Part shown: piece by piece, positions 405 through 44,772 of the stretch | Numbering within the stretch: the first letter of the stretch is position 1 | How the letters are laid out: each line of letters opens with the position of its first letter | From: Escherichia phage BB1 | Length of the DNA: 64,000 nt | Strand: one strand, 5' to 3' | Sequence record: NC_106597.1 | Program-made: the position numbers and the translations under genes | Notes under the pieces: generated by a model | The model's input: the letters and a program-made list of their open reading frames with translations, nothing else | Databases searched by the model: none | Told to the model about the DNA's origin: nothing

Positions 405-480
405 TGGTACACCCACTAGGACTTGAACCTAGAACCCTCCGCTTAAGAGGCGGTAGCTCTAACCATTGAGCTATGGATGT
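405..480 (-). tRNA. tRNA-Lys (anticodon CUU)
   Basis: Manual cloverleaf in minus sense: acceptor ACATCCA/TGGGTGT, D-stem GCTC/GAGC, anticodon loop CTCTTAA, T-arm CTAGG-TTCAAGT-CCTAG, encoded CCA. Confidence 0.7.
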
Positions 481-556
481 ATTATTATGCTTTGCAGTGC
501 TCTAAATATAGATACTTCCCACGCGGTGGTTATCTATACCAGCGTCCTGCAAAAAT

Positions 557-633
557 TGGCGCGACCGATGGGATTTGAACCCACATTCCCTCCCGTGACA
601 GGGGAGTACCATTACCAAGCCAGCCCCGGTCGC
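557..633 (-). tRNA. tRNA-Asp (anticodon GUC)
   Basis: Manual fold: perfectly complementary acceptor (rc of gcgaccg/cggtcgc), 5-bp anticodon stem with loop rc of gtgacag, T-loop TTCAAAT, encoded CCA. Confidence 0.75.
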
Positions 634-642
634 ATAATTCAT

Positions 643-828
643 TTACTCAGCTTTGAGTTTTTCAATAGCTGCATTAAGTTCTTTAAGAAACTCTTTTCGT
701 ACATTAAGACGGTTGAGACTTACTAGTATATCATGTTTAAGTTCTTCGATGTATTTCTTCTCAACTTCAATATTGTTGAGAGTGCTATCACGATGAACTT
801 CTAGCTGTGCAATTACATTCTTGGACAT
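643..828 (-). CDS. hypothetical small protein (61 aa, coiled-coil-like)
   Basis: ORF with GAGGAAAC RBS-like motif upstream of ATG; no recognisable domain. Confidence 0.4.
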   Translation of the reverse strand: MSKNVIAQLEVHRDSTLNNIEVEKKYIEELKHDILVSLNRLNVRKEFLKELNAAIEKLKAE

Positions 829-855
829 GCTTGTTTCCTCAGTTATTAATGAAAA

Positions 856-927
856 TGGTATCTGTGGCTGAATTCGATGTCAGCAATGATAGCTGGTTGG
901 CTACCGGTTTACTTAACTCTACACAGA
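856..927 (-). tRNA. tRNA-like element (possible degenerate tRNA)
   Basis: TGG (rc CCA) followed by 6-bp complementary termini (tctgtg/cacaga); T-arm-like gctga-attcgatg-tcagc; anticodon arm not canonical. Confidence 0.3.
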
Positions 928-930
928 ATT

Positions 931-1013
931 TGGCGGGCCGTGTAGGATTCGAACCTACGTTGTCTTTCGACATGGATTAACAGTCCACCGCCAAACCGCT
1001 TGGCTAACGACCC
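931..1013 (-). tRNA. tRNA-Asn (anticodon GUU) with unusually long 13-nt variable arm
   Basis: Manual fold: acceptor GGGTCGT/ACGGCCC, D-arm GCCA-AGCGGTT-TGGC, anticodon arm GTGGA-CTGTTAA-TCCAT, variable GTCGAAAGACAAC (GAAA tetraloop hairpin), T-arm GTAGG-TTCGAAT-CCTAC, CCA encoded. Confidence 0.65.
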
Positions 1014-1165
1014 TGAATTTGTATTGCTGACTAGGATTTTCACCTAGACGGAGTTAGCACCGTAGCGTGTAGCGGCATACCTCTCCAAACCGTGCCTCAT
1101 CTTTCAATTACGGAGACAGTGTTCCTACGCGTGCCTGAATTGATTTAACAATTCTTTCAGCAAAT

Positions 1166-1241
1166 TGGACGACCGCATGAGATTTGAACTCACATAAAAA
1201 GGATTTGCAATCCTTCGCCTAAGCCATTCAGCCAACGGTCG
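1166..1241 (-). tRNA. tRNA-Cys (anticodon GCA)
   Basis: Manual fold: anticodon stem aagga/tcctt with loop rc of tttgcaa, T-loop TTCAAAT, acceptor pairs with one G-U, encoded CCA. Confidence 0.75.
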
Positions 1242-1289
1242 ATTTATCTTGTTCTGTCATGTTGCTTCTCCAGTTCAATTTATGTAATT

Positions 1290-1318
1290 ATTATACAGAA
1301 CTTTTGGAAACTAAGCAA
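1290..1318 (-). promoter_or_regulatory. early promoter, sigma70-like (minus sense TTGCTT-17 bp-TATAAT)
   Basis: Plus-strand attata at 1290-1295 and aagcaa at 1313-1318 with 17-bp spacer; member of the repeated promoter family. Confidence 0.6.
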
Positions 1319-1583
1319 CTACATTTTTTAAGAATTTGATGCCTTTCTTTTTCTTCTTATATTTCCACGTTAATGGATTCTGTCGATTATGAACGCTTGA
1401 GATCTTTGTCTCGTCAAAGTTCTTCAATATCATGTAATCACAAGATAATTGTTCTAATGGAATGTGATCACCGTCAAAAGCATATACATAAGGCTGTTGA
1501 CTAGCACGATAATGATAGACTTTGTTAATTCTACGTTTCAGCGACTTATCCGCGCAGTAAATAAAGAAATTTTCAGGATGCAT
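1311..1583 (-). CDS. hypothetical protein (90 aa)
   Basis: ORF with AAAGGAG RBS before ATG. Confidence 0.5.
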   Translation of the reverse strand: MHPENFFIYCADKSLKRRINKVYHYRASQQPYVYAFDGDHIPLEQLSCDYMILKNFDETKISSVHNRQNPLTWKYKKKKKGIKFLKNVVA

Positions 1584-1600
1584 CAGCAGCTCCTTTAAAT

Positions 1601-1675
1601 TGGTGCACCCCGTTGGTAACGATCCAACCTCTCAAGCTCTTCAGGCAAGCGCTAATCCATCTCAGCTAAAGGTGC
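1601..1675 (-). tRNA. tRNA, tentative anticodon GAA (Phe); non-canonical (U-U mismatches in anticodon stem, T-loop ATCGTTA)
   Basis: Manual fold: acceptor GCACCTT/GGGGTGC, T-stem GGTTG/CCAAC, anticodon loop CTGAAGA; anticodon stem has only 3 of 5 pairs. Confidence 0.45.
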
Positions 1676-1681
1676 AAATTT

Positions 1682-1758
1682 TGGCAAACCTACTAGGACT
1701 CGAACCTAGACCGTACGGTTTTGGAGACCGACATGCTGTCCAGTAACACTCTAGGAAT
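1682..1758 (-). tRNA. tRNA-Trp (anticodon CCA), tentative
   Basis: T-arm CTAGG-TTCGAGT-CCTAG, anticodon loop CTCCAAA, encoded CCA; acceptor and D-arm pair poorly. Confidence 0.5.
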
Positions 1759-1766
1759 GCAGAAAT

Positions 1767-1843
1767 TGGCGTCCTGTGCGGGGATCGAACCCACAAATCC
1801 TACCTTGAAAGGGTAGTGACTTTACCAGTTTGTCTAACAGGAC
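1767..1843 (-). tRNA. tRNA-Glu (anticodon UUC)
   Basis: Manual fold: perfect acceptor (gtcctgt/acaggac), anticodon stem ctacc/ggtag with loop rc of ttgaaag, T-loop TTCGATC, encoded CCA. Confidence 0.75.
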
Positions 1844-2325
1844 TTAAATTGCTTATTGGATAGATTGTTAAACTCGGAAAGTATTTCGTTTACACCTCTG
1901 TCTAACACTACCCATTCATTAAGCCGTTCAGGAAAGCTATTATGAAGCATTTTCTCCGCTTCTCTAGCATTAAACCAAAATGACCAATGTATTAACTTAT
2001 AATCACGTAAAGGAGAATAGGTTTGGTAATTTCCTAATCTTGTTTTAGGATCAGAAGACATACCAATTTTTACATAGTTATCCCAAGCTGGGTTAGTTAT
2101 TGCGTAAATAAAACCACAGCTGGATTTTTCTCCAATACTTTTGTTATACTTGATAAAAGATAGTGCAGATAACTTCAAGCTATATCGACGATTACTATCG
2201 CGACCAAAGTTAGCTGTACCGAATGTGAGGCTTTCTAACATTAGATCTTTGTTTATATCAGCTGGTGAACCCAACTGTATAATACCCCTATTTGCAGCTT
2301 CTTGAATTATCCGATCAATATACAT
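1834..2325 (-). CDS. T5orf172-type GIY-YIG-like domain protein (putative homing-type endonuclease)
   Basis: 163 aa; motif CGFIYAITNPAWDNYVKIGMSSDPKTRL resembles the GIY-YIG/T5orf172 core; AAAGGTAAAGG RBS; stop codon overlaps the 5' end of tRNA-Glu. Confidence 0.55.
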   Translation of the reverse strand: MYIDRIIQEAANRGIIQLGSPADINKDLMLESLTFGTANFGRDSNRRYSLKLSALSFIKYNKSIGEKSSCGFIYAITNPAWDNYVKIGMSSDPKTRLGNYQTYSPLRDYKLIHWSFWFNAREAEKMLHNSFPERLNEWVVLDRGVNEILSEFNNLSNKQFKSC

Positions 2326-2342
2326 ATCCTTTACCTTTAATT

Positions 2343-2430
2343 TGGTGGGCGTTAATGGAGTCGAACCACTCGAGTCGCAATGACCAGGGATTTACAATCC
2401 CCTCCGCTACCACTTACGGAATAAACGCCC
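2343..2430 (-). tRNA. tRNA-Tyr (anticodon GUA), long variable arm
   Basis: Manual fold: acceptor GGGCGTT/AACGCCC, anticodon loop TTGTAAA, long variable region, T-arm AGTGG-TTCGACT-CCATT, CCA encoded. Confidence 0.75.
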
Positions 2431-2558
2431 ATATTTAAAAGTATTCAAATACTAGTTTAAACACTTTTAAATATGTTTCCAAATTAGATAACTATTATAC
2501 CAAGTTTTAAGGCACTGAGCAAGTCAAATTTTAAAGAACTTGCTCAGTGCTGTATTAG

Positions 2559-2834
2559 TTAGTCGAACTTAGGAGTGACAGTTAAGGAGAATGGAAGTTC
2601 GAAGACTTCTTCGCCCTCATCACTAACAGTAATTACACGACCTTTAAGTTCAGACATTGAAATATCAATATCAGCTTTTGCATCTGGAGCCATGCCAGCT
2701 TCAACACATTTAGCTTTAATTTCCGGCAGAAGTTCTACATCGTAGAAATAAAGCCATTCAATCTCACCTTCCCAGCCTTCCCAGGATTTACAGATTGCAC
2801 TTTCAATACCAGTTGCTATAACACGATTTTGCAT
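2559..2834 (-). CDS. hypothetical protein (91 aa)
   Basis: ORF with GAAGGAG RBS. Confidence 0.5.
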   Translation of the reverse strand: MQNRVIATGIESAICKSWEGWEGEIEWLYFYDVELLPEIKAKCVEAGMAPDAKADIDISMSELKGRVITVSDEGEEVFELPFSLTVTPKFD

Positions 2835-2924
2835 TCGTTAACTCCTTCATCAATTTATATAACTATTATACCAGAAATTTAAAGCAAAAGGCAAGTACAT
2901 TTTTAAAAATTCTGTTTGGAGGAG

Positions 2925-3131
2925 CTAAACTCCAGATTCTTCAGCTAAGTCTAGGCTAATAAGAGATATAGCCATAATTGCTGCTCCGTGTTCTCTTTCT
3001 CCTGTCTCTTTAGCTAGGGTTATAATATCAAGAAATTGCTTATGAAAGTCTGCAACCTCTTGAGTCATACCTGCCTCAGCAATCATGCCTTTAAGCATGA
3101 AACGTTGTGCGGTAATTTCGGGATTAGCCAT
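2925..3131 (-). CDS. hypothetical protein (68 aa)
   Basis: ORF with GGAG RBS. Confidence 0.45.
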   Translation of the reverse strand: MANPEITAQRFMLKGMIAEAGMTQEVADFHKQFLDIITLAKETGEREHGAAIMAISLISLDLAEESGV

Positions 3132-3291
3132 GTTGTTTCTCCAGTTTCATGTTTAATAGTCTACAAATAAAATCAATGTCTTCATCTGTGCCTAGATCTC
3201 TATCTTCAAGAGTTGCCTTGAAGTTTTTCGTCAATTCCATGAGGATAACTTCTCTAGAACGACGTGTTGGCGGAGGTGGATGTCTATACAT
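3124..3291 (-). CDS. hypothetical small protein (about 55 aa, proline-rich N-terminus), below ORF-track size cutoff
   Basis: Hand-translated MYRHPPPPTRRSREVIL...; AAGGAAATAAG RBS; stop overlaps start of downstream gene. Confidence 0.4.
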   Translation of the reverse strand: MYRHPPPPTRRSREVILMELTKNFKATLEDRDLGTDEDIDFICRLLNMKLEKQHG

Positions 3292-3305
3292 CTTATTTCC
3301 TTAAG

Positions 3306-3382
3306 TTGGTAGGGGTGGTGGGATTCGAACCCACAAAACCTGAATTTTAAGTCCAGTACCTATGCCAATTCGATTACACCCC
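3306..3382 (-). tRNA. tRNA with anticodon UAA (Leu-type) but short class-I variable loop
   Basis: Manual fold: acceptor GGGGGTG/CACCCCT, anticodon arm CTGGA-CTTAAAA-TTCAG, variable GTTTT, T-arm GTGGG-TTCGAAT-CCCAC, A73, CCA encoded; D-arm does not pair canonically. Confidence 0.55.
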
Positions 3383-3484
3383 CATGTAATCAGTTTATTA
3401 GTTGGTACATATTATAGCCTAGTGAAAATCCTACTACTAGTCCCACAAACCAACCAATATAATAATCTTTTAGTTTCACAGGTA

Positions 3485-3670
3485 TTATCCTCGTTCAATA
3501 TCTAGGGAAATACCGCAGTTAGGATTAATACCTGTACCGTTGCAATTTGAACAAATCCAGATATTGCAAAAAGTATCTCCTGCTTCTGCATCAGAACTTT
3601 CACCAATTCCCCTACATTCAGGGCAGGCACATTCTTCTAGCTCTTGCTTGAGTTCTTGAAACTTAGACAT
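3485..3670 (-). CDS. small Cys-rich zinc-ribbon-like protein (61 aa)
   Basis: CxxC...C...CxxC pattern (CACPECRG...CNIWICSNCNG); AAGGAG RBS. Confidence 0.5.
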   Translation of the reverse strand: MSKFQELKQELEECACPECRGIGESSDAEAGDTFCNIWICSNCNGTGINPNCGISLDIERG

Positions 3671-3679
3671 ATAGTCTCC

Positions 3680-3868
3680 TTAGTCAATTACTTTTGAGGC
3701 TTCAAGGGAGTCGATATAGTATACGTTTTCTACCATAATCATATAATCTGCCACTTTATCCATAGCTTGGGCCTCAGAGGTAGCTCTGGCTAACCTATAT
3801 CCTTTTTTATATTCATCCGGGTATTCTCTATCTTGAATAAACACAACATAAACTATGTATAATTCCAC
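3680..3868 (-). CDS. hypothetical small protein; start uncertain (GTG at 3868 or ATG at 3763)
   Basis: Track ORF 3680-4015 overlaps tRNA 3888-3965, so truncated to the first plausible start after the tRNA with a GGGGA RBS. Confidence 0.3.
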   Translation of the reverse strand: MELYIVYVVFIQDREYPDEYKKGYRLARATSEAQAMDKVADYMIMVENVYYIDSLEASKVID

Positions 3869-3887
3869 TTGTAATCCCCTAATTAAG

Positions 3888-3965
3888 TTGGTGGCTCCCC
3901 GAGGATTCGAACCTACGTACCTTCCGGTTATGAGCCGGGTGCTCATACCATATGAGCTTGAGAAC
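3888..3965 (-). tRNA. tRNA-Met or tRNA-Ile (anticodon CAU)
   Basis: Manual fold: acceptor GGTTCTC/GGGAGCC (with G-U), D-arm GCTC/GAGC, anticodon arm CCGG-CTCATAA-CCGG; T-stem only 3 bp; CCA encoded. Confidence 0.55.
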
Positions 3966-3971
3966 CAAAAT

Positions 3972-4065
3972 CTGGAGGAAGATGCCAGACTCGAACTGGC
4001 ACACCATGTTTCCACAGTTACTGGCTGTTTAGCAAACAGCTCCCTTACCTTTAGGGTTAATCTTC
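3972..4065 (-). tRNA. tRNA-Ser (anticodon GCU)
   Basis: Manual fold: perfect acceptor GGAAGAT/ATCTTCC, 3-bp D-stem, anticodon arm GCTGT-TTGCTAA-ACAGC, long variable arm, T-arm GCCAG-TTCGAGT-CTGGC, CCA encoded. Confidence 0.65.
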
Positions 4066-4087
4066 CGAATTTATAAGATATATTATA

Positions 4088-4609
4088 TTAGAAATTTAGC
4101 TTCATAGCAAGAAAATTTTTCAAGTTTTCGGTAGACATCTCATCTACATCTACAGGAGAAACAAAGCCGTTTAATTTTCTAGCAAATTTTTCACCATCGG
4201 GATCATTGTCTCCAACAGCTACCAATTTAAAAGGTAGTAATTTCAGTTGCTTTAATAACGCTTTTCCTGGAGAAGAACCCAACATTGCTAGGGCTGGATA
4301 ACCAGCGTTATGTAACGCAACTGCCTTAAATACAGATTCAGCAATCAATACTACTTTTTCATCTCCATTGAGAGTTTCTAGTCCCCATACACACTGGGTA
4401 GTAGAATAAGTAAAGTATTTAGCTTCAAAGGGGCACTTACCATGACCTTTTGGAGCAGAAGGATTATAAGTTTGATAGCCCCTCAACATCCCAGAGAAGT
4501 CATACAACGGGACTGTTAGCCATCCTTCTGGACTTAACCAGCAATGATATTTATCTGTATCAAATCCCCTAGATAAGAGGTGCTGTGTTAGCTCATCAAC
4601 ATTCATATT
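4088..4609 (-). CDS. Toprim-domain-like protein (about 173 aa)
   Basis: Conserved-looking E (IAESVF) and DxD (VGDNDPDGEKF) resembling the Toprim fold; start moved to MNVDELTQ with GAGAGGAACC RBS downstream of promoter 4637-4665. Confidence 0.45.
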   Translation of the reverse strand, partial: NMNVDELTQHLLSRGFDTDKYHCWLSPEGWLTVPLYDFSGMLRGYQTYNPSAPKGHGKCPFEAKYFTYSTTQCVWGLETLNGDEKVVLIAESVFKAVALHNAGYPALAMLGSSPGKALLKQLKLLPFKLVAVGDNDPDGEKFARKLNGFVSPVDVDEMSTENLKNFLAMKLNF

Positions 4610-4636
4610 TGGTTCCTCTCTCAAATTTATAGATAT

Positions 4637-4665
4637 ATTATACAGAGAATTTAGCATTCAAGCAA
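4637..4665 (-). promoter_or_regulatory. early promoter (minus sense TTGCTT-17-TATAAT)
   Basis: attata 4637-4642, 17-bp spacer, aagcaa 4660-4665. Confidence 0.6.
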
Positions 4666-4781
4666 TCAAATTTTTTAACTTTTTAGAGGAAAATCATAGG
4701 GCACTTAAGGGTAGCAGATAAGTGGTGAGGACCAAAATTTGTGACCCCACTAAAAATCCGGGGGCAATTTTTAAAGACCCC

Positions 4782-4810
4782 TTGACATTTTCGCTGGGGT
4801 AGTGTAAAGT
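4782..4810 (+). promoter_or_regulatory. sigma70-type promoter (TTGACA-17-TAAAGT) sharing the 13-mer TTGACATTTTCGC with the element at 34512
   Basis: Consensus -35 at 4782-4787; 17-bp spacer; -10-like TAAAGT at 4805-4810. Confidence 0.5.
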
Positions 4811-4872
4811 ATATGTTATGGATGAGTGATCAAAGAGACACACATTTTCTATATACTAGGAGGTGTCAAAAA

Positions 4873-5859
4873 ATGACAGAAGAAGTAGCTAAGAGTCCTG
4901 AGACCGTCGCTAGCGTTGCAGCAGAACTGCACCGTCACGAGGAATCAGATAAGAAAAAGTGGGAGAAGGTCAGAGCCTACGAAGAAAAACATCGTGAACA
5001 CGATGATGAAGAAGATGACGATGATGAACATTGTCATAAATATGGAAAACATAAAATGCAAGAACCAGTAAACGTATTCACTAGTGGCTTCCCTGGCCTA
5101 CTGGGTGGTTACCCAGCAAACGCAGGTGCTTTCGGTGGTGAAGGTATGGGACTATTCGGAGCTATCCTAATCGGTGCTCTATTAACAGGCGGATTCGGTG
5201 GTTTCGGTGGATTCGGTGGACGTGGTGTAGTTGGTGAAGGTACCGCAGTTGATGCGGTACTTCAGAACCAAGATACCGCTAGTATTCTAGCAGCTATTAA
5301 CACTACTCGTACAGAAGCTAATCAGGGTACTGGGGCTGTGTTAAGCGCAGTTAACAATGGTTTTAGCCAGACATCCCAAAACCAGAGCCGTGATACTCAG
5401 TCTGTACTAACTACGATTTATGGTACAGGTGCTAATCTGTCTAATCAGATCTGCCAGGAAACTCGCAACGTTATTCAGGGTCAGTTCGATCTTTCTCGCC
5501 AGATTGATCAATCTTTCGCAGCTAACCAGATAGCTCGTGCACAAGATAAATTTGATTCTGCACAGATCGCTTTCCAGCAGACTTTACAAACTAATAACCA
5601 GTTTGCCGCTGTTCAGGCTCAGATGTGTGCTAACCAGAACTCTCTGGAACGTCAGATCGCTGAATGTTGCTGTGAACTTCAGACTGCGATCGCTGGTGTA
5701 ACTACTGCGCGTATCCAGGATGAGTTAGATGCATGTCGCCTACGTGAGGCAATCGCTGCGGGTAATGGTGCTAACGGTCAGGTAATTAATCAAATCGCTG
5801 TAAGTCTTGGTGCAATCACTCAGACTCTGGCTGGTCTGCAGGCTAAACTGCCGGCTTAA
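4873..5859 (+). CDS. low-complexity protein: acidic/His-rich N-terminus, Gly-zipper hydrophobic segment (GGFGGFGGFGG), Q/N/S/T-rich C-terminal region
   Basis: AGGAGGTG RBS 7 nt before ATG at 4873 (track ORF starts earlier at 4813); by eye GC and codon choice look higher than neighbours. Confidence 0.6.
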   Translation: MTEEVAKSPETVASVAAELHRHEESDKKKWEKVRAYEEKHREHDDEEDDDDEHCHKYGKHKMQEPVNVFTSGFPGLLGGYPANAGAFGGEGMGLFGAILIGALLTGGFGGFGGFGGRGVVGEGTAVDAVLQNQDTASILAAINTTRTEANQGTGAVLSAVNNGFSQTSQNQSRDTQSVLTTIYGTGANLSNQICQETRNVIQGQFDLSRQIDQSFAANQIARAQDKFDSAQIAFQQTLQTNNQFAAVQAQMCANQNSLERQIAECCCELQTAIAGVTTARIQDELDACRLREAIAAGNGANGQVINQIAVSLGAITQTLAGLQAKLPA

Positions 5860-5880
5860 TATTAAGGGGAGGAGCCCATT

Positions 5881-6297
5881 ATGAGTAAATATGGTTTTGT
5901 AAATAACGGACTTAATCAAAGTATGGGCTCCCAGCAGCCCATTCCGGGTCTGGATAACCCCTACTTACAACAGTTGCAACAGCGTTTAGCAGAAGCGCAA
6001 CAGATGCAGCAACAACTCCAGCAAAACCCTGGAAGTGTGAGTCCTATGCAAATGATGCAGCAAATGAGCGGGCAGTCGCAAATGCCTCAACAAATGCAGC
6101 AACAGGTGCCTCAGCAGCAAGTTCAGCAACAAACCCAACAACCGCAGGTTTCTGCGGAAGGACAGGCAGTACTAGCCCTTTTCGAAGACTTCGCAAAGAC
6201 AGAGGATGGGAAACAGCTTGTATCACTTATGGGTAAGTTTAATAGCTTCTGCCAAAGCCAAGTTGCAAAAGCTCAAAATGGGGGTAGTAACTCCTAA
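5881..6297 (+). CDS. glutamine-rich low-complexity protein (138 aa)
   Basis: GGGGAGGAG RBS; long poly-Q/QM stretches. Confidence 0.55.
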   Translation: MSKYGFVNNGLNQSMGSQQPIPGLDNPYLQQLQQRLAEAQQMQQQLQQNPGSVSPMQMMQQMSGQSQMPQQMQQQVPQQQVQQQTQQPQVSAEGQAVLALFEDFAKTEDGKQLVSLMGKFNSFCQSQVAKAQNGGSNS

Positions 6298-6306
6298 GGA
6301 GGAAAT

Positions 6307-6501
6307 ATGTGTTGCAGAAAATCTGTTTCGTGCTGCCCAATGCCTGTAGCACGTTGTTGCTCTCCAGCAATGTTTACACAAATACCGGCGTTCAATCCCT
6401 TTGCCTTTAAGCCTACTCTTATCCTGCCCCCTAGAGTAGATTTTCAGTCAAGATTGGCCTCCCGTATGGGTGGTTGCTGTACACCGAGAGTATGGTTCTA
6501 A
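6307..6501 (+). CDS. small Cys-rich protein (64 aa, four CC dipeptides)
   Basis: TAAGGAGG RBS 5 nt upstream of ATG; followed by intrinsic terminator. Confidence 0.45.
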   Translation: MCCRKSVSCCPMPVARCCSPAMFTQIPAFNPFAFKPTLILPPRVDFQSRLASRMGGCCTPRVWF

Positions 6502-6511
6502 ACCAAAAACA

Positions 6512-6548
6512 AAAGCCCCTGCCGAAAGGTAAGGGGCTTTTTCTTTTG
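6512..6548 (+). terminator. rho-independent terminator
   Basis: Hairpin aaagcccct...aaggggcttt followed by T-run. Confidence 0.65.
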
Positions 6549-6556
6549 CCTTAAAT

Positions 6557-6592
6557 ACAGAAAAGCCCGCGCTCTCGTAGGAAACGCGGGCT
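6557..6592 (-). terminator. rho-independent terminator (minus sense), downstream of SPFH gene
   Basis: GC-rich hairpin gcccgcg...cgcgggc with T-run in minus sense. Confidence 0.55.
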
Positions 6593-6616
6593 TGGTTCGA
6601 AGATTACGTGTAACTA

Positions 6617-7564
6617 TTACTTGTTACGCATATCCATGATCATTTGACCATCGTAGCCAGTACCTACCACAGTCTGAGGTACACCACCTTGATACTTCTG
6701 AGCACGGATCATTTCAACTTCCAATTGCTTCCAACGAATCATCTCAGGAGTAATGGTACGTTGCAATGCGGCGTTAGCTTCAGCTTCTTTCTTAGCTGCG
6801 TACAGTTTAGCATCTGCGTCACGTTCATTAGCAATAGCTTGGTTGTTACGAGCTTCACGATCTGCTTCTGCTTGTTTAACTTTTTGCTGTGCTTCCTGTT
6901 CAACGCGAGCAAGTTCAGCTTTCGCAGCATTAACTTGCTCTTCACGAACTTTGGTATTCTGTACCTGTTCCATGATTACTGGCGGCAAAGTAATATCCTG
7001 AAGGAACACCTGCTTAACTGTGTAACCATATGGGCGTGCATACTCTTCAACTTCCTGTTGAATTGCAGTTTGCAATTGAGCCTGAATTTTAGCATCAAAT
7101 AAATCTTGTGCTTTAGGTACAGACTTACCAAACTCACGAATAGTAGACAGTAATTTTTCAGTTACATACTTGTCTAGTGCCTGATCCTGAGTACCTGCGT
7201 TAATACGGTTAATCGGTGCTTTAGAACCATCAAACTGCAACATAACAGTCAGGTCAACAGTGGATTTAAACTTATCCTGGCTAGGAACCTGAAGTTTATC
7301 TAATTTTACAGCAATATCTTTTGTACTAAAAGTATCGAAAGATGCAAACGGGTTTACAAGATGGAAACCCGGCAATACTGGATTAGGGTCTACTTTACCC
7401 AGGAATGTTTGGGTTTTAACCGTACCATCAGAAACAATAGTATATGAATTAAAAGCTAGGATTAAACCTGCTAAACCAACTACAGCACCAATACCCCAAC
7501 GTTTAATAGTACGAATTACTTTCTGCTCAGAAGTCAGTTCTTTCATATTTTTAGTAGCAAACAT
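6617..7564 (-). CDS. SPFH/band-7 (prohibitin/HflK-HflC-like) membrane protein
   Basis: N-terminal TM helix (IGAVVGLAGLILAF), SPFH-like core, C-terminal Ala/Glu-rich coiled coil; AAAGGAAAT RBS. Confidence 0.75.
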   Translation of the reverse strand: MFATKNMKELTSEQKVIRTIKRWGIGAVVGLAGLILAFNSYTIVSDGTVKTQTFLGKVDPNPVLPGFHLVNPFASFDTFSTKDIAVKLDKLQVPSQDKFKSTVDLTVMLQFDGSKAPINRINAGTQDQALDKYVTEKLLSTIREFGKSVPKAQDLFDAKIQAQLQTAIQQEVEEYARPYGYTVKQVFLQDITLPPVIMEQVQNTKVREEQVNAAKAELARVEQEAQQKVKQAEADREARNNQAIANERDADAKLYAAKKEAEANAALQRTITPEMIRWKQLEVEMIRAQKYQGGVPQTVVGTGYDGQMIMDMRNK

Positions 7565-7598
7565 ATATTTCCTTTGTTTTAGTTACAGTTAATAAAAT

Positions 7599-7673
7599 TG
7601 GCCGAGGTGACAGGATTCGAACCTGCATAAAGGAATTTAGAAGACTCCTGCCTCTCCCTTAGACTACACCCCG
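7599..7673 (-). tRNA. tRNA-Arg (anticodon UCU)
   Basis: Manual fold: T-arm GCAGG-TTCGAAT-CCTGT, anticodon stem with loop rc of ttagaag, acceptor pairs with one G-U, CCA encoded. Confidence 0.7.
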
Positions 7674-32299: not shown

Positions 32300-32710
32300 A
32301 TGACTACTCCAACTCAGTGGACTGATGAACTGTTCGAAAAAATGTCTTCCGAATACGTTGCTCGTATGGAGCAATTCCCAGAGGATGAACGTCCGGGTGT
32401 TAGCATGGAAATTGTTAGCGAAATTGCTCAGGAAAATGGTGTAACTCCGAACGGTTTTCGTATGAAGTTGACCAAAGCAGGTGTATATATCAAGAAAGCT
32501 GCTGGCTCTGCTTCTAAATCTAGCGCATCTACTGGAGAAAAGGCTTCTGGTGGTTCTCGTACTTCCAAAGCCCAAGCTCATGCCGACCTTCGTTCAGCAT
32601 TCTCTGATGCTGGCTTAGCCCCAGATTTTCTGGATGATGCAATTATCGACAAACTGACCGGTAAAGCGGCTGCTCATCTGGCAGAAGCAATCCGAGCTAT
32701 CACTAAGTAA
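32300..32710 (+). CDS. hypothetical protein (136 aa)
   Basis: ORF with AAGGAAAT RBS. Confidence 0.55.
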   Translation: MTTPTQWTDELFEKMSSEYVARMEQFPEDERPGVSMEIVSEIAQENGVTPNGFRMKLTKAGVYIKKAAGSASKSSASTGEKASGGSRTSKAQAHADLRSAFSDAGLAPDFLDDAIIDKLTGKAAAHLAEAIRAITK

Positions 32711-32746: not shown

Positions 32747-33043
32747 ATGACCAAAGCTGAAATTATCGCACAATGTGAAAAATTTGGTGAGTTTTATCTT
32801 CATTACGAGAAACTTCGTCAGAAAGGAACCACGTACCTTCAGGGTACGATGGAATTTGATCCAGCCCAAGATAAATATCTGGCTGAGCGTATTAAACGTG
32901 AACGTATTCGTAAAGCGAAAGATGATGAGATCCTTGTCTTCTCTCGTACTAATGATAGCTTCCGTTTTATTCCTGTCGAAAAAGTCCGTCGTGTGACTAG
33001 CCTCCAATCAGAGTTAGATCGTGCTTCTCCAGTAGGCCGATAA
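32747..33043 (+). CDS. hypothetical protein (98 aa)
   Basis: ORF with AAAAGGAAC RBS. Confidence 0.5.
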   Translation: MTKAEIIAQCEKFGEFYLHYEKLRQKGTTYLQGTMEFDPAQDKYLAERIKRERIRKAKDDEILVFSRTNDSFRFIPVEKVRRVTSLQSELDRASPVGR

Positions 33044-33053
33044 GAAACCAATT

Positions 33054-33077
33054 AGCCCCTATATGGGGCTTTTTGTG
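33054..33077 (+). terminator. rho-independent terminator
   Basis: agcccct-atat-ggggct hairpin followed by TTTTTGTG. Confidence 0.65.
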
Positions 33078-33489: not shown

Positions 33490-34461
33490 ATGACTAATGT
33501 AAAAGACTTTATTAAACGCTGTCAAGAAGCATATTATCAAGGTATGTCTTTAATCTCTGATGAGGAGTATGATTGCCTGGTAAAACGCTTCCCATTAGAA
33601 GAAGAGATCGGACCTAAGGGTGATATTCCACATCTATATCGTATGTATTCTTTACAGAAAGTTTATTATAATCGTGGAGATAAACCCCCATTCAACCCAT
33701 TAGGTCAGGTAGAAACTGATAAGTTAGATGGTTGTGCGATTTCTCTGTTATATATTAATGGAGAATTTGTTCAAGCACTAACTCGTGGCAATGGTATTCT
33801 GGGAAATGATGTCACAAGCAACGTAAGATTGCTGAATATCCCTAAAAAGATTTCCCAAAAAATACCTACTCAAATCACTGGTGAAGTTCTAATTACAAAA
33901 GAAGTAGAAAATAAACGTAACTTTGCCTCTGGTGCTATTAACCTCAAAGATAGCGATGATTTCGTACAGCGTATCGGGGAAGGTGGTTTAATCTTCGTCG
34001 CATATGGCATTCAGTGTTCTGCTGAATCTGTAGGTATTACAGAAGCATATTTAAAAGATATGCTTTGGCTGGAGAATGAGAACTTCTTAACAGTTGTTAA
34101 TGTACGTTCCTTCTTTAAATGGATTCCGACGGACGGTAAAGTTGTTCGTATTAATGACAACAACAAATTCTTCCGTGAAGGCTGGACTAATAAATTCCCT
34201 CGCGGGGCGTTCGCTATTAAAGAGGATGAAGAAGGCGAGATTACAACTCTTACTAAAGTTGAATGGCAGGTAGGGGCTTCTGGTAAAGTAACTCCAGTTG
34301 GTTATTTCGAACCGGTAATTATTGATGATGCTACAATTGTTAAAGCGACTCTTAATAACGTTGATTATATTAACTCTCTCGATCTAGAGATCGGTTGCCA
34401 GATTCGAGTGATTCGTGCTGGTGGTGTAATCCCGTGCATAGTAGAGCGAGTATACGATTAA
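33490..34461 (+). CDS. ligA: NAD-dependent DNA ligase, N-terminal (adenylation/OB) subunit
   Basis: KxDG adenylation motif (ETDKLDGCAISLLY), TRGNGILGNDVT; ends before the zinc-finger/HhH/BRCT part. Confidence 0.8.
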   Translation: MTNVKDFIKRCQEAYYQGMSLISDEEYDCLVKRFPLEEEIGPKGDIPHLYRMYSLQKVYYNRGDKPPFNPLGQVETDKLDGCAISLLYINGEFVQALTRGNGILGNDVTSNVRLLNIPKKISQKIPTQITGEVLITKEVENKRNFASGAINLKDSDDFVQRIGEGGLIFVAYGIQCSAESVGITEAYLKDMLWLENENFLTVVNVRSFFKWIPTDGKVVRINDNNKFFREGWTNKFPRGAFAIKEDEEGEITTLTKVEWQVGASGKVTPVGYFEPVIIDDATIVKATLNNVDYINSLDLEIGCQIRVIRAGGVIPCIVERVYD

Positions 34462-34511: not shown

Positions 34512-34540
34512 TTGACATTTTCGCCGCTTAGGTATATACT
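34512..34540 (+). promoter_or_regulatory. sigma70-type promoter (TTGACA-17-TATACT) within the ligase split
   Basis: -35 34512-34517, -10 34535-34540; shares TTGACATTTTCGC with 4782-4794. Confidence 0.5.
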
Positions 34541-34604: not shown

Positions 34605-34633
34605 TTGCTAAATGCTTAAATACTTGCTATAAT
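34605..34633 (+). promoter_or_regulatory. early promoter (TTGCTA-17-TATAAT) upstream of ligase C-terminal subunit
   Basis: -35 34605-34610, -10 34628-34633. Confidence 0.65.
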
Positions 34634-34660: not shown

Positions 34661-35443
34661 TTGATGAAAATCGAAATTCCAACACAATGTCCCTCTTGTG
34701 GTTCTAAGCTAGATCTTGTCAACGGACAATTATTCTGTCGGAATAAGTCCAACTGTCCAGCGCAATCAAGCAAGTTAATTGAGAACTTCTGTTCAAAAAT
34801 GAAGTTAAAGGGCTTTGGCCCAAAAACTATTGAGAAGCTGGAGCTGACGAAGATTTCAGAACTATTTTACCTAACCGAAGAAGATTTGGTTAGAGCCGTG
34901 GGTAGCAAGGTTGCCGCTAAGTTAATTAGCGAATTAAATACTAAAGTTCGCGGAGACATTGACTTTGGTTCAGTTCTCGGTTCTTTAGGAATCCCTCTAA
35001 TTGGAGAGGTTGCAGCAAAGAAATTATCCCAAAATTGCACTAGCTTCCATGATGTGAAGGCTGACGGCAAGGCTGGAGAAAATTATAAAGCCTGGCTAAA
35101 TTCCCCACAAGGCAAGGATGTTATCGAATTACCGTGGAAATTTTCAACTGGTATTAAGGGCACTAAAGCTGACGTCATCATTACAGATGAATTAGTTGCC
35201 CAGCCAAATGGAATCGCGGTATGTATTACCGGATCTTTGCAAGATTTTGCAAATCGAACGGATGCAACAAACTATTTAGAAAGTCTAGGGTATACGGTTA
35301 AGAAATCCGTTACCAAAGACGTCAAATACCTAATCTGTGAGGATGAATCGAAGCGTTCTTCCTCATCTTATAAGAAAGCCGAAACGAATGGGATAGAAAT
35401 CCTGTCGATTAAAGAACTATTGGAGAAAAATAATAATGTCTAA
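34661..35443 (+). CDS. ligB: NAD-dependent DNA ligase, C-terminal (Zn-finger/HhH/BRCT) subunit
   Basis: Cys4 zinc finger (CPSCGSKL...CRNKSNCPAQ), HhH-like GIPLIGEVAAKKL, BRCT-like C-terminus. Confidence 0.8.
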   Translation: MMKIEIPTQCPSCGSKLDLVNGQLFCRNKSNCPAQSSKLIENFCSKMKLKGFGPKTIEKLELTKISELFYLTEEDLVRAVGSKVAAKLISELNTKVRGDIDFGSVLGSLGIPLIGEVAAKKLSQNCTSFHDVKADGKAGENYKAWLNSPQGKDVIELPWKFSTGIKGTKADVIITDELVAQPNGIAVCITGSLQDFANRTDATNYLESLGYTVKKSVTKDVKYLICEDESKRSSSSYKKAETNGIEILSIKELLEKNNNV

Positions 35444-36203
35444 ACTGAACTGGAACGTAGAAGGTGTAACCGAGTCTCTGAAAGCAAAAGCCACTGCTCT
35501 GGGTGTTTCTGTAATCTCTCAAGAACAAGTAGCTGCTATCGCTACTGAACTGGCTGCTGAAACTGGCAAAGATGTTACTGCTCGCTCTGTTGGCTCTAAA
35601 CTGCGTAAAGAAGGTTTTGAAGTACAGAAAGCTAACGAAGTACAGAAATCCCCGTGGACTCCTGAGCAGGAAGCTGAACTGGTTGATTTCCTGAACGCTC
35701 ATGCTGGTCAGTATACCTATGCTGAAATCGCTGCTGCTGTAGCTGGTGGTCAGTTCGGTGCTAAACAGGTACAGGGTAAGATCCTGAGTCTGGAAATGAC
35801 TGCTTCTGTTAAACCAACTGAAAAAGCTGCTGCTGTTCGTTCCTTTACTCCGGATGAAGAAACTGATTTTGTTAATCAGGTTGTTGCTGGTGCTACTATT
35901 GAAGCTATCGCTGCTCACTTCGGTCGTAATATCAAGCAGATCCGTGGTAAAGCTCTGAGCCTGCTTCGTGAAGGTCGTATCGCTGCTATGCCGGTACAGG
36001 AAACCTCAAGTGCTAAAACTCGTGAAGATCTGTTAGAAGGTCTGGATCTGGCTAACATGACTGTTGCTGAGATCGCTGAGAAAACTGGTAAATCTGAGCG
36101 CGGTGTTAAATCTATGCTGTCTCGTCGTGGTCTGGTTGCTAAGGACTATGATGGTGCCGCTAAGCGTGCTAAACTGGATGCAAAAGCTGCGGCTGCTGAA
36201 TAA
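35436..36203 (+). CDS. Ala-rich protein with four internal HTH-like repeats; putative abundant DNA-binding protein
   Basis: Four repeats of about 30 aa (e.g. YTYAEIAAAVAGGQFGAKQVQGKILSLE / ATIEAIAAHFGRNIKQIRGKALSLL); by eye codon choice resembles highly expressed genes. Confidence 0.55.
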   Translation: MSKLNWNVEGVTESLKAKATALGVSVISQEQVAAIATELAAETGKDVTARSVGSKLRKEGFEVQKANEVQKSPWTPEQEAELVDFLNAHAGQYTYAEIAAAVAGGQFGAKQVQGKILSLEMTASVKPTEKAAAVRSFTPDEETDFVNQVVAGATIEAIAAHFGRNIKQIRGKALSLLREGRIAAMPVQETSSAKTREDLLEGLDLANMTVAEIAEKTGKSERGVKSMLSRRGLVAKDYDGAAKRAKLDAKAAAAE

Positions 36204-36220
36204 TCTGGTAAATTAAACCT

Positions 36221-36253
36221 AAGGGGAGGGGGCTATGCTCCTTCCCCTTTTTG
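36221..36253 (+). terminator. rho-independent terminator
   Basis: aaggggaggggg...ccttcccctt hairpin followed by TTTTG; overlaps the first track-ORF start at 36235. Confidence 0.6.
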
Positions 36254-36285
36254 CATTTAGAAGGCACGAAAGCGTGCAAAGGAGA

Positions 36286-37758
36286 ATGACCTTGTTTAAC
36301 GTGCAAGCTGTAGTGTTGAAGATGCTTCTAGCTTCTGAACAGAAGCAAATAGCATTGGAAACATTCTCAAAACTGCATAAAGATCATTTTAATGACGCTT
36401 TCTCCTCAATTTACCAAGCCGTCCAGAATTATTATAAAAAATATAACACAATGCCGTCCATTGATGCACTGATGCTTGAGGCTAATAGGAACGCCCGCCT
36501 TTCTCAAGCTCTAGTCGTCTTAGCTAACACTCAAATTCCAGAAGTGAGCATGGAACAGGCACTTGAAGTCCTAGAGGCCGAATATACACAGGATTTATTC
36601 CTGAAGCTTCTAGAAACAGACGTGCTTCAAGATTTAACAATGCTGGATCAGGGAGAAATTCTCAACCGAGTTGCCTCCCTTCACTTAAAATTAGAAGAGA
36701 AAGTAACGAATACTGGAAAAGTATTCAACGCAGATAACATGCGTATTTTCCAGAGAGAAGAAGATACCAAACTGAACCTAATCGCTCTTGGTATTTGTAA
36801 TGAGTTCGACGCTCAAATTGGTTTAGCTCGCACAGAAACGTTACTGCTTGGTGGTTGGCGTGGTACTGGTAAATCCATTATCTGTTCAAACATACAGGTT
36901 CAGCAATATTTGAATGGAGATATTGCTCCATACTTCTCAATTGAGATGAAAGAACATGAAGTATTTAGACGTAATCTAGCCATGTTAGCTGGTGTATCAG
37001 CATTAGCAATGCGTAATAATACTCTAGAAGGTGCAGCTCTGTTGAGATTGGCCAGAACTAGAGCTAGAATGTTTAATGGGGGTGAAGAGCTTTTTGATAA
37101 CTTCGTTAAACAGTACACAATGGCTAAGATGAGTGATTTCTACGATATGGAGAGTAAGCTAATAGAGGGATATGAACTACATACTCCCATGATTATTGTT
37201 TATGATCCTGAACTGTCCATTACAACAGTTGACGTAGAATTAAATAAATTAGTTGCTAGATACGGAGATAAAGTTACAGTAGCTTTACTGGACTATATTA
37301 ACCAAACCCGACTTCCAGACTCTAAAACCATTGATATGTATGACTGGAAAGAACAGATGGTTGTTAGCTCGTCTTTCAAATCTATCTGCCAGAAACATAA
37401 CGTGGCTGGCGTAGCTCCTTACCAGATCGATCAAGATGGTAGAACACGTATGTCAAAGGGGATTCTTGATTCTGCAGACATGGCTGCTAATCTTAATGCT
37501 GCAAAAGCTGATAATGGTCAAGGTGCTATTATGTTTGACTTCGTTAAGACTCGTTCTTCTGATAGCGTGAAGTTTATGCCTAAAATGAACTGGGAAACCC
37601 TGCGGATGGATAACACTACCAACCTAGCAATGGAAGATATATCTCAAATGGAAGCTGAGTTCGTTATCCCTATTGAGAAGGATAAGCCGGCTCAACCTAA
37701 ACGTGCTAAGAAAGACAAAGCTGAAAATTCAACAGGTGAACAGGCCAGCGATATATGA
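36286..37758 (+). CDS. replicative helicase-like P-loop ATPase (DnaB/RecA-fold), tentative
   Basis: Walker A GGWRGTGKS, Walker B-like region; start moved to MTLFNV (AAAGGAG RBS) downstream of terminator. Confidence 0.6.
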   Translation: MTLFNVQAVVLKMLLASEQKQIALETFSKLHKDHFNDAFSSIYQAVQNYYKKYNTMPSIDALMLEANRNARLSQALVVLANTQIPEVSMEQALEVLEAEYTQDLFLKLLETDVLQDLTMLDQGEILNRVASLHLKLEEKVTNTGKVFNADNMRIFQREEDTKLNLIALGICNEFDAQIGLARTETLLLGGWRGTGKSIICSNIQVQQYLNGDIAPYFSIEMKEHEVFRRNLAMLAGVSALAMRNNTLEGAALLRLARTRARMFNGGEELFDNFVKQYTMAKMSDFYDMESKLIEGYELHTPMIIVYDPELSITTVDVELNKLVARYGDKVTVALLDYINQTRLPDSKTIDMYDWKEQMVVSSSFKSICQKHNVAGVAPYQIDQDGRTRMSKGILDSADMAANLNAAKADNGQGAIMFDFVKTRSSDSVKFMPKMNWETLRMDNTTNLAMEDISQMEAEFVIPIEKDKPAQPKRAKKDKAENSTGEQASDI

Positions 37759-43998: not shown

Positions 43999-44772
43999 AT
44001 GGCTAAGTCTTGGGGCGAAACTACTGGCGGTTCTAATGATAAAATCGAATTCCTGAAGTTCAACAACGGTATCACTCGTGTTCGTATCGTTTCTGGTGTT
44101 CTTCCACGTTATGTCTATTGGCTGACTAATAAAGAGGGTAGCGTAGCTCCTTTCGAATGTCTCCGTTTTAACCGTGACAAAGAGAGCTTTGTTCGTGGTA
44201 AAGCCGATCCGGTTCATGAGATGGGCTTCTTCGAGAAAGAGCTGGATAAAGATGGTAATCGTGTTCCGCTGAAACCGAAGAAAAACTATATCGCTTTTGT
44301 TATCGACCGTTCTGATAACAAACTGAAAGTAATGGAAGTCAAGGCTACTATTCTGAAAGGCATCCAGTCTATCATGAAGCAGTTGAATCTGGCAACCCCA
44401 TTTGATATTGATATTTCTATCGAGAAAAAAGGTAAAGGTTTCGATACTGAGTATGACGTACAGCAGATTGCTGCTATGCAGTTCCAGATTAAGCTGCAAG
44501 ATCCTAACAGTGCAGAATCTAAGCAATATGCTGCAGACGTAGATCTAATCGGTGAAGCTATGTGTGACGAAGATGGCGACATCATTAAGTTCGAAAAAGT
44601 TCCTTCTCTGGAACAAACCTATCCGGTTCCTACCTATGAAGAGCAGAAAGAAGCGATTCAAGCCTTCATGGAAGGTCGTGAGAATAAAGATGATGATGCC
44701 AAATCTGGTAATAGCAATGCGGGCTCCCAGAAAGGTATTGACTCAGAAGCTGCAAGCGATCTGGACGACTAA
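43999..44772 (+). CDS. hypothetical protein with acidic C-terminal tail (SSB-like feature); function uncertain
   Basis: 257 aa, AAAGAGGAAAT RBS, C-terminus DSEAASDLDD; by eye codon choice resembles highly expressed genes. Confidence 0.45.
   Translation: MAKSWGETTGGSNDKIEFLKFNNGITRVRIVSGVLPRYVYWLTNKEGSVAPFECLRFNRDKESFVRGKADPVHEMGFFEKELDKDGNRVPLKPKKNYIAFVIDRSDNKLKVMEVKATILKGIQSIMKQLNLATPFDIDISIEKKGKGFDTEYDVQQIAAMQFQIKLQDPNSAESKQYAADVDLIGEAMCDEDGDIIKFEKVPSLEQTYPVPTYEEQKEAIQAFMEGRENKDDDAKSGNSNAGSQKGIDSEAASDLDD

Follow-up and report, generated by a model that had tools for sequence, protein, structure and literature searches.

The D5 gene of Escherichia phage BB1 and its product of four predicted helix-turn-helix modules

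A 64,000-nucleotide stretch of the genome of Escherichia phage BB1 (NC_106597.1; this whole stretch is called the window below) carries at positions 35436–36203 a gene which sequence homology identifies as D5 of a T5-like phage (Tequintavirus), orthologous to D5 of phage T5. Its product, which is 255 residues long, is modelled as four tandem tri-helical helix-turn-helix (HTH) modules, the fourth of which is truncated at its N-terminus, followed by an Ala/Lys-rich helix. D5 of the window is likely an abundant multi-HTH coat of duplex DNA of the T5 type, which would serve both replication and the switch from early to late transcription.

Identity of the gene and its modules

The open reading frame (ORF) 35436–36203 is real. 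The window protein and T5 D5 (T5.118, YP_006946.1) are identical in 252 of 255 residues (99%) and differ in three substitutions (S25D, T37A and A206V; window residue, position, T5 residue). The two genes are alike in length and neighbours, and their promoters and terminator are identical. The protein matches PHROG 323, "transcriptional regulator, D5-like", across residues 1–253 (E = 3e-71), and the gene is found in the position of that family, between ligase subunit B and a DnaB-like helicase. Because D5 matches T5.118 and PHROG 323, the window is part of a Tequintavirus genome. In a nucleotide search, 506 phage records match the D5 gene; the top one is 99.7% identical and labelled "D5 protein", and other labels include "D5-like transcriptional regulator", "transcription factor" and "DNA-binding protein". 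An antisense ORF (35409–35918, 169 residues) was set aside as homology and codon bias are all on the plus strand.

The gene is already known, being the same gene as T5 D5 in a sister phage. The T5 reference record describes D5 as a DNA-binding protein that is needed for DNA replication and late transcription and is involved in early shut-off. A first-pass annotation of the window, made from the letters alone, had described an Ala-rich protein of 255 residues and suggested that it may be "an abundant DNA-coating or transcription-switch protein". The description is accurate (44 of the 255 residues, or 17%, are Ala), and the suggestion is supported by the orthology to T5 D5 and by the function given in the T5 record; the reading of the raw sequence thus correctly recognised a classic phage protein.

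The four tandem HTH units of D5 start near residues 5, 73, 136 and 193. Four HTH-like repeats of about 30 residues had been proposed at first. Their number and kind hold in hhalign comparisons, in the structure model and in Pfam scans; their length does not, as the repeat period is about 55–65 residues (roughly 60) and not 30. The "30 residues" correspond to the conserved core made up of helix 2, the turn and helix 3, and the motif quoted at the time is that of Repeat 2 (the repeats are called R1–R4 in what follows).

The kinship of the repeats was assessed at two levels. For the single sequence, Smith-Waterman scores were compared with those of 2000 composition-preserving shuffles; for profiles, an alignment of 74 D5 homologues (50–81% identity) was cut into four segments, which were compared by hhalign. 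The strongest pair is R2–R3, with a Smith-Waterman score of 54 (z = 7.6) that none of the 2000 shuffles reached and an hhalign P of 3.4e-9 (probability 96%), so the internal repeats are detectable by software. The other pairs are weaker: R3–R4 (z = 2.7; P = 7.6e-5), R1–R4 (z = 2.2; P = 3.8e-4), R2–R4 (z = 2.3; P = 4e-3), R1–R3 (z = 1.0, not significant; P = 7e-4) and R1–R2 (z = −0.3, not significant; P = 2.8e-3). Only R2–R3 is clearly beyond chance in the single sequence, and the kinship of R1 and R4 is visible only at the level of profiles and structure. A search for a repeat at the DNA level within the gene found matches between GCT runs only; the duplication of the modules is therefore ancient and not recent.

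An AlphaFold2 model of D5 built on the 74-homologue alignment (mean predicted local distance difference test score, pLDDT, 94; predicted template modelling score, pTM, 0.55) contains three 3-helix units within residues 11–58, 76–118 and 139–178. The fourth unit consists of a helix-turn-helix pair only (residues 210–217 and 221–231) and precedes a C-terminal helix (residues 240–254). A BFVD model of D5 from a Vibrio phage superposes on the entire window protein with a template modelling (TM) score of 0.75. Scanned against Pfam one at a time, R1 matches HTH_33, R2 matches Myb and HTH_32, R3 matches EutK_C, HTH_28 and HTH_23, and R4 matches Sigma70_r4_2. The last of these, at 26.9 bits against 25.7, is the sole repeat match above a curated cut-off.

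The repeats could in principle be a by-product of an Ala-rich, helix-prone composition and not homologous modules. The Ala content, the DNA-level matches limited to GCT runs and the failure of R1–R2 and R1–R3 to rise above shuffles point that way. However, this explanation is hardly credible given that the shuffles preserve composition and yet never attain the R2–R3 score, that the profiles of these two repeats agree at the P value given above, that the helix pattern recurs in the AlphaFold2 model, that each unit matches HTH families separately and that conserved columns recur at equal positions of helix 3.

Related folds and the recognition helices

The best fold match of the D5 modules is the DNA-binding domain of GcrA, followed by Myb/SANT domains. 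The modules fall into the wide class of tri-helical, homeodomain-like HTHs, and their Myb and sigma-region-4 features are resemblances only. No solved structure of D5 was found, and a single-sequence phmmer search of the Protein Data Bank (PDB) gave nothing significant (Myb21, E = 0.58; c-Myb, E = 1.7). Profile searches of PDB sequences gave marginal matches of R2/R3 to the Myb repeats of SNAPc4 (E = 1.5e-3), Timeless (E = 1.6e-3), c-Myb (E = 0.016) and GcrA (E = 0.74), and of R1 to designed engrailed homeodomains (E = 1.6e-4, also marginal); the R4 profile matched nothing in this set.

Arrays of Myb/SANT domains (c-Myb R1–R3, SNAPc4, Cdc5/Cef1, Timeless) share with D5 the tandem arrangement of tri-helical HTHs of about 50 residues and a W/F-[TS]-x-[ED]-E-[ED] start. 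In D5, the three-helix bundles form their HTH from helices 2 and 3, as Myb/SANT domains do, and R2 and R3 begin with a Myb-like W/F-T-P-[ED]-E-E. The Pfam Myb models (PF00249 / PF13921) score the window protein at 17.5 bits (E = 0.0044), under the cut-off of 24.4, and Myb_DNA-binding is matched by 16 of the 74 homologues at E <= 0.01 (best, 8.6e-7). The regularly spaced Trp triad of Myb was not found in D5: the first aromatic alone is present in R1–R3 (W6, W74 and F137), and the later positions are Ile, Ala or Leu, both in the window protein and in the consensus. Unlike the Myb/SANT arrays, D5 is a phage protein and has linkers of roughly 15–30 residues between its predicted helical units. Membership in the Myb/SANT family was rejected on the Pfam score and on the missing aromatic triad.

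The Sigma70_r4_2 model scores 29.3 bits on full-length D5 (cut-off 25.7; residues 204–230), a match that covers only model positions 23–49 of 54, and it is matched by 65 of the 74 homologues. Sigma70_r2 was not found in D5 even at E <= 10, and D5 was rejected as a sigma factor because it lacks region 2. Pfam GcrA (PF07750) is matched at E <= 0.01 by five of the 74 homologues and not by the window protein. In Caulobacter GcrA (DNA-binding domain, PDB 5yiu), one such domain is combined with a sigma-interacting C-terminus, whereas D5 has four modules. The C-terminal sigma-70-interacting domain of GcrA was not found: the C-terminus of D5 is a single Ala/Lys helix, and among the homologues examined only N-terminal positions of GcrA are matched. 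Membership in the GcrA family was rejected since only the fold is shared and the profile E value is not significant.

The same matches bear on the idea that D5 acts as a GcrA-like or sigma-region-4-like cofactor of RNA polymerase (RNAP), which would tether the sigma-70 holoenzyme or replace −35 contacts at late promoters. R4 exceeds the Pfam threshold for Sigma70_r4_2, a few homologues match GcrA, and sigma-70 RNAP is used by all T5 gene classes while the switch factor is unidentified (PMC7472727). However, neither sigma region 2 nor a GcrA-like sigma-interacting domain was detected in D5, the profile match to GcrA is not significant, and the RNAP-associated T5 proteins (60, 11, 90 and 15 kDa, and gpT5.026) do not include one of the size of D5 (PMC7472727), which leaves a cofactor role improbable.

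Transposases and homing endonucleases (Tc3, Mos1; the HNH tails of phages), which appear in the PDB and viral fold-search lists, likewise carry HTH modules on linkers. There, the HTHs are targeting appendages of enzymes, whereas no catalytic domain was detected in D5. These matches are weak (Foldseek against PDB, E > 0.07; TM about 0.2).

The four third helices, which constitute 17% of D5, hold 11 of the 15 invariant alignment columns (p = 1e-6) and 24 of the 49 invariant and near-invariant ones (p = 4e-9), and from repeat to repeat conservation falls on matching positions of helix 3. The helix-3 regions have net charges of +2, +2, +5 and +5, and those of helices 1–2 range from neutral to acidic (+1 to −4). 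Because conservation and positive charge cluster in the third helices, the sequence data fit a D5 in which all four modules contact DNA via their recognition helices.

Expression signals and proposed role

With a frequency of optimal codons (Fop) of 0.84 for E. coli-preferred codons, D5 ranks highest of the 60 window ORFs (median 0.47, z = 4.2); its effective number of codons (Nc), 29.5, is the lowest (median 44.9). The list of preferred codons was taken from general knowledge, and Nc requires no reference set. The codon bias that the first-pass annotation had noted by eye, as a sign of very high expression, is borne out by these extremes. In Vibrio phage Ceto (51% amino acid identity), too, no neighbouring gene has an Nc as low as that of D5 (29.0, median 45.5), and the same holds in Proteus phage PM135 (55% identity; 36.8, median 46.8). 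For Leu, D5 prefers CTA in Ceto and TTA in PM135, and the window gene mostly uses CTG; judged from these sequences, a phage-specific Leu codon would agree with translational selection in the respective hosts. The window genes that follow D5 in codon bias include the orthologue of the D3 "DNA binding protein" (32300–32710; Fop 0.70) and the gene of a D11-like single-strand DNA-binding protein (43999–44772; Fop 0.645), and by codon usage the DNA-binding early proteins look as a group to be selected for high expression.

Two sigma-70 promoters lie upstream of ligB, and hence of D5, in a region that over 241 nt shows 100% identity to T5, where the record annotates them as the early promoters P-K 28b and P-K 28a. 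The gene is followed by a strong terminator, as had been noted at first: its hairpin (36221–36249) has 13 pairs, eight of them G-C, and a 3-nt loop, and continues into TTTGCATTT. The folding energy of 36200–36265 is −25.6 kcal/mol (z = −2.9). The terminator is 100% identical in T5, where the record carries no annotation for it, and in Ceto and PM135 other GC hairpins with T-runs are found at the corresponding place. A low Nc and a terminator of its own thus recur as properties of D5 among the examined T5-like phages, enterobacterial as well as those of Vibrio and Proteus.

The terminator touches on the start of the next gene. The longest ORF of the downstream helicase (T5 D6) opens with an ATG at 36235, which lies within the loop of the D5 terminator hairpin; the equivalent codon is the annotated D6 start in the RefSeq record of T5. 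The helicases of Ceto and PM135 align to D6 only from residue 20–21 on (NVQAVVLK), and an AAGGAG (36279–36284) stands before an in-frame ATG (36286) and TTG (36292). Judged from the sequence, the annotated D6 start is probably 17–19 codons too far upstream.

In a virion preparation of the T5-like phage phiR2-01, D5 was among the major or most abundant proteins by mass spectrometry (PMC8624392). This result, the codon bias and the two early promoters give indirect support to a high expression of D5. A structural protein of the virion, a role that the phiR2-01 data could suggest, is unlikely, as the virion proteins of T5 do not include D5, the gene of which lies in the early replication block.

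In the preferred reading of D5 as a T5-type DNA coat, the strong early promoters would have the protein made in large amounts. Each monomer would place several basic recognition helices in successive major grooves with little sequence preference, and the plentiful protein would coat replicating T5 DNA by multivalent binding of low specificity. Such a coat would limit the access of DNA polymerase and RNAP to early regions and shut off early transcription, and the coated template would become competent for replication and late transcription. According to classical work, D5 modulates T5 DNA polymerase on duplex templates; genetically, it is classed as essential on the strength of conditional-lethal mutants. 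A functional analogue of the role ascribed to it is p6 of phage phi29, an early protein of very high abundance, which binds the duplex genome along its length, is needed for replication and takes part in the early-to-late switch. Protein p6 differs from D5 in being a small unrelated protein that has no HTH repeats and wraps DNA in a multimeric nucleoprotein complex; no kinship of the two in sequence or fold was found, nor was any search aimed at it made. Cooperative, sequence-independent binding of D5 to duplex DNA and a very high abundance were reportedly described by Rice et al. in J Biol Chem in 1979 and by Fujimura and Roop in J Virol in 1983.

D5 could instead be mainly a sequence-specific transcription factor, whose HTHs read sites at T5 promoters and repress early or activate late ones, or do both. 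This would agree with the strong conservation of the recognition helices in its four HTH modules, with the many phage records labelled "transcription factor" or "transcriptional regulator", and with the ATATT discriminator motif, which is common to T5 early promoters and absent from late ones (PMC7472727). However, such a protein would rarely need the most extreme codon bias together with two strong promoters, classical biochemistry describes cooperative binding to duplex DNA of any sequence, D5 is also required for replication according to the T5 record, and the "transcription factor" labels are transferred and not experimental. A specific regulator is, on balance, unlikely, if less so than the other alternatives considered here.

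More recent data on D5 come from a 2026 preprint (PMC13405049), in which T5 D5 is a 26-kDa monomer in solution and is toxic when expressed alone. The protein triggers and remodels the type IX retron-Kva2, a DNA-containing complex, and an AlphaFold3 model places a D5 HTH motif on the multicopy single-stranded DNA (msdDNA) of the retron (PMC13405049). The retron-escape phage T5.1 has the D5 substitutions G53D, W74*, V149I and G232D (PMC13405049), and three of these four changes (G53, W74 and G232) fall on near-invariant columns of the 74-homologue alignment. As D5 is classically essential, a viable phage with the nonsense change W74* would be surprising, or the population was perhaps a mixed one.

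The interaction with a defence system raises a further alternative, that D5 is chiefly a shield of the genome against host nucleases, methylases and defence systems. A protective DNA-binding protein has been proposed to account for the insensitivity of T5 to restriction (Davison 2015, as cited in PMC10644984). However, D5 is an early gene on the DNA transferred in the second step and is therefore made after that DNA has entered; no link could be made between the avoidance of methylation and the protective protein that had been proposed (PMC10644984), and D5 is what the retron senses and gives the phage no protection there (PMC13405049). A shield as the chief function is quite improbable.

A bolder proposal is that D5 is a "chromatin" protein, whose four GcrA/sigma-4-like modules would polymerise on T5 DNA and present a sigma-70-compatible surface, switching RNAP from early to late promoters; their DNA-binding surface would also be the one that type IX retrons evolved to sense. 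If this were true, the D5-coated template would be the missing early-to-late switch of T5. We regard it as a long shot, on a par with the RNAP-cofactor role.

Several points weigh against D5 as a DNA coat of four modules. By sequence, R1 and R4 show only weak kinship with R2 and R3 in both the single-sequence and the profile tests, R4 has no predicted first helix, and the pTM of the AlphaFold2 model makes the relative arrangement of the modules uncertain. D5 as a whole has a net charge of zero (34 Lys and Arg, 34 Asp and Glu), an uncommon value among coating proteins. A biased codon usage and strong promoters point to an abundant protein and do not measure its abundance; "DNA-coating" and very high abundance rest on the biochemistry of 1979–1983. 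The mechanism of the T5 class switch "remains unknown" (PMC7472727). The classical role of D5 is not outranked by any of the alternatives, and the specific-regulator and RNAP-cofactor roles could coexist with it.

Gene neighbourhood and family spread

The early replication block of the window has the order ligA, ligB, D5, DnaB-like helicase (T5 D6), primase and polymerase, and the part from ligB to polymerase has the same arrangement in SPC35, T5, Vibrio phage Ceto and Proteus phage PM135. The stop codon of ligB (35441–35443) overlaps the start of D5 by 8 nt (Table 1). Because of this overlap and because ligB lies between the promoters and D5, the two genes are probably co-transcribed and translationally coupled.

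Table 1. D5 and associated features of the window (nt, window position; aa, D5 residue)
Feature	Position	Strand	Details and basis
Sigma-70 promoter, T5 P-K 28b	34512..34540	+	TTGACA-17-TATACT; promoter scan, 11/12 match; in the gap between ligase ORFs
Sigma-70 promoter, T5 P-K 28a	34605..34633	+	TTGCTA-17-TATAAT, upstream TG; promoter scan, T5 annotation
NAD-dependent DNA ligase subunit B (ligB)	34661..35443	+	ORF list; SPC35 and T5 annotation
D5 ribosome-binding site	35422..35425	+	GGAG, 10 nt spacing to ATG; read from sequence
D5 coding sequence	35436..36203 (ATG 35436, TAA 36203)	+	255 aa plus stop; ORF list, homology
Repeat 1	35448..35621 (aa 5–62)	+	Helices 11–22, 29–43, 49–58; recognition helix ARSVGSKLRK; R50, K55, R57 invariant
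Repeat 2	35652..35798 (aa 73–121)	+	Helices 76–88, 95–101, 109–118; Myb-like WTPEQE start; Q113, G114, K115, L117 invariant
Repeat 3	35841..35981 (aa 136–182)	+	Helices 139–150, 155–162, 166–178; FTPDEE start; G171, K172 invariant
Repeat 4, divergent	36012..36143 (aa 193–236)	+	HTH helices 210–217, 221–231; resembles sigma-70 region 4; G223, L228 invariant
C-terminal Ala/Lys-rich helix	36153..36197 (aa 240–254)	+	AlphaFold2 model; charge and conservation analysis
Intrinsic terminator	36221..36254	+	Starts 18 nt past the D5 stop; 13-bp stem, 3-nt loop, T-rich tail

The NAD-dependent ligase is split into two ORFs, A (33490–34461) and B (34661–35443), about 200 nt apart, with P-K 28b and P-K 28a in the gap, as in T5. 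The window and SPC35 lack the HNH homing endonuclease hegJ that T5 carries between helicase and primase, and the helicase ORF of the window overlaps the primase ORF by 4 nt at 37755. Elsewhere in the window, a perfect 6-bp GC-rich hairpin (33054–33070; AGCCCC-TATAT-GGGGCT) just after the ORF 32747–33043 scores as a terminator on both strands and is probably the rho-independent terminator annotated after T5.114. Ten tRNA genes (Lys, Asp, Asn, Cys, Trp, Glu, Tyr, Leu, Ser and Arg) lie on the minus strand at 405–7673, as is typical for T5-like phages.

The D5 protein was found by tblastn in 901 phage records, nearly always as a full-length match. The sampled records include T5-like phages of Escherichia, Salmonella, Klebsiella, Proteus, Vibrio and Aeromonas with genomes of 105–128 kb and one Klebsiella record of 289 kb, and the tally of organisms also contains Pectobacterium. 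Among 1.84 billion cluster representatives searched with a profile, 564 proteins match at E <= 0.001; the best 50 or so are mostly 233–262 residues long, and the remainder of the list is largely made up of shorter fragments. Four metagenomic proteins of 500–1570 residues (P0242, P0253, P0255 and P0259) match the D5 profile in 6–10 separate stretches each. Three of them strongly match Pfam Myb; P0255 instead matches HTH_7, HTH_23 and related HTH models. By these matches, all four look like very long arrays of HTH modules of the D5 kind. Near-identical D5 sequences (98.8–99%) are also filed under "Listeria phage LM 4-11-1" (OR847187.1, 4.8 kb, unannotated) and as partial "Enterococcus faecalis" proteins (P0020, P0039), most likely as a result of contamination with a T5-like phage.

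To a gene that is classic in T5, the present analysis adds the anatomy of four modules, the focusing of conservation in their recognition helices, and a codon bias and a dedicated terminator that extend across the family. D5 is one genetically implicated factor in the early-to-late switch of RNAP in T5, the mechanism of which is called unknown in PMC7472727, and its four HTH modules, with invariant residues nearly all in the recognition helices, offer concrete targets for mutagenesis. The same anatomy gives context to the 2026 report of D5 as the trigger of retron-Kva2 (PMC13405049).

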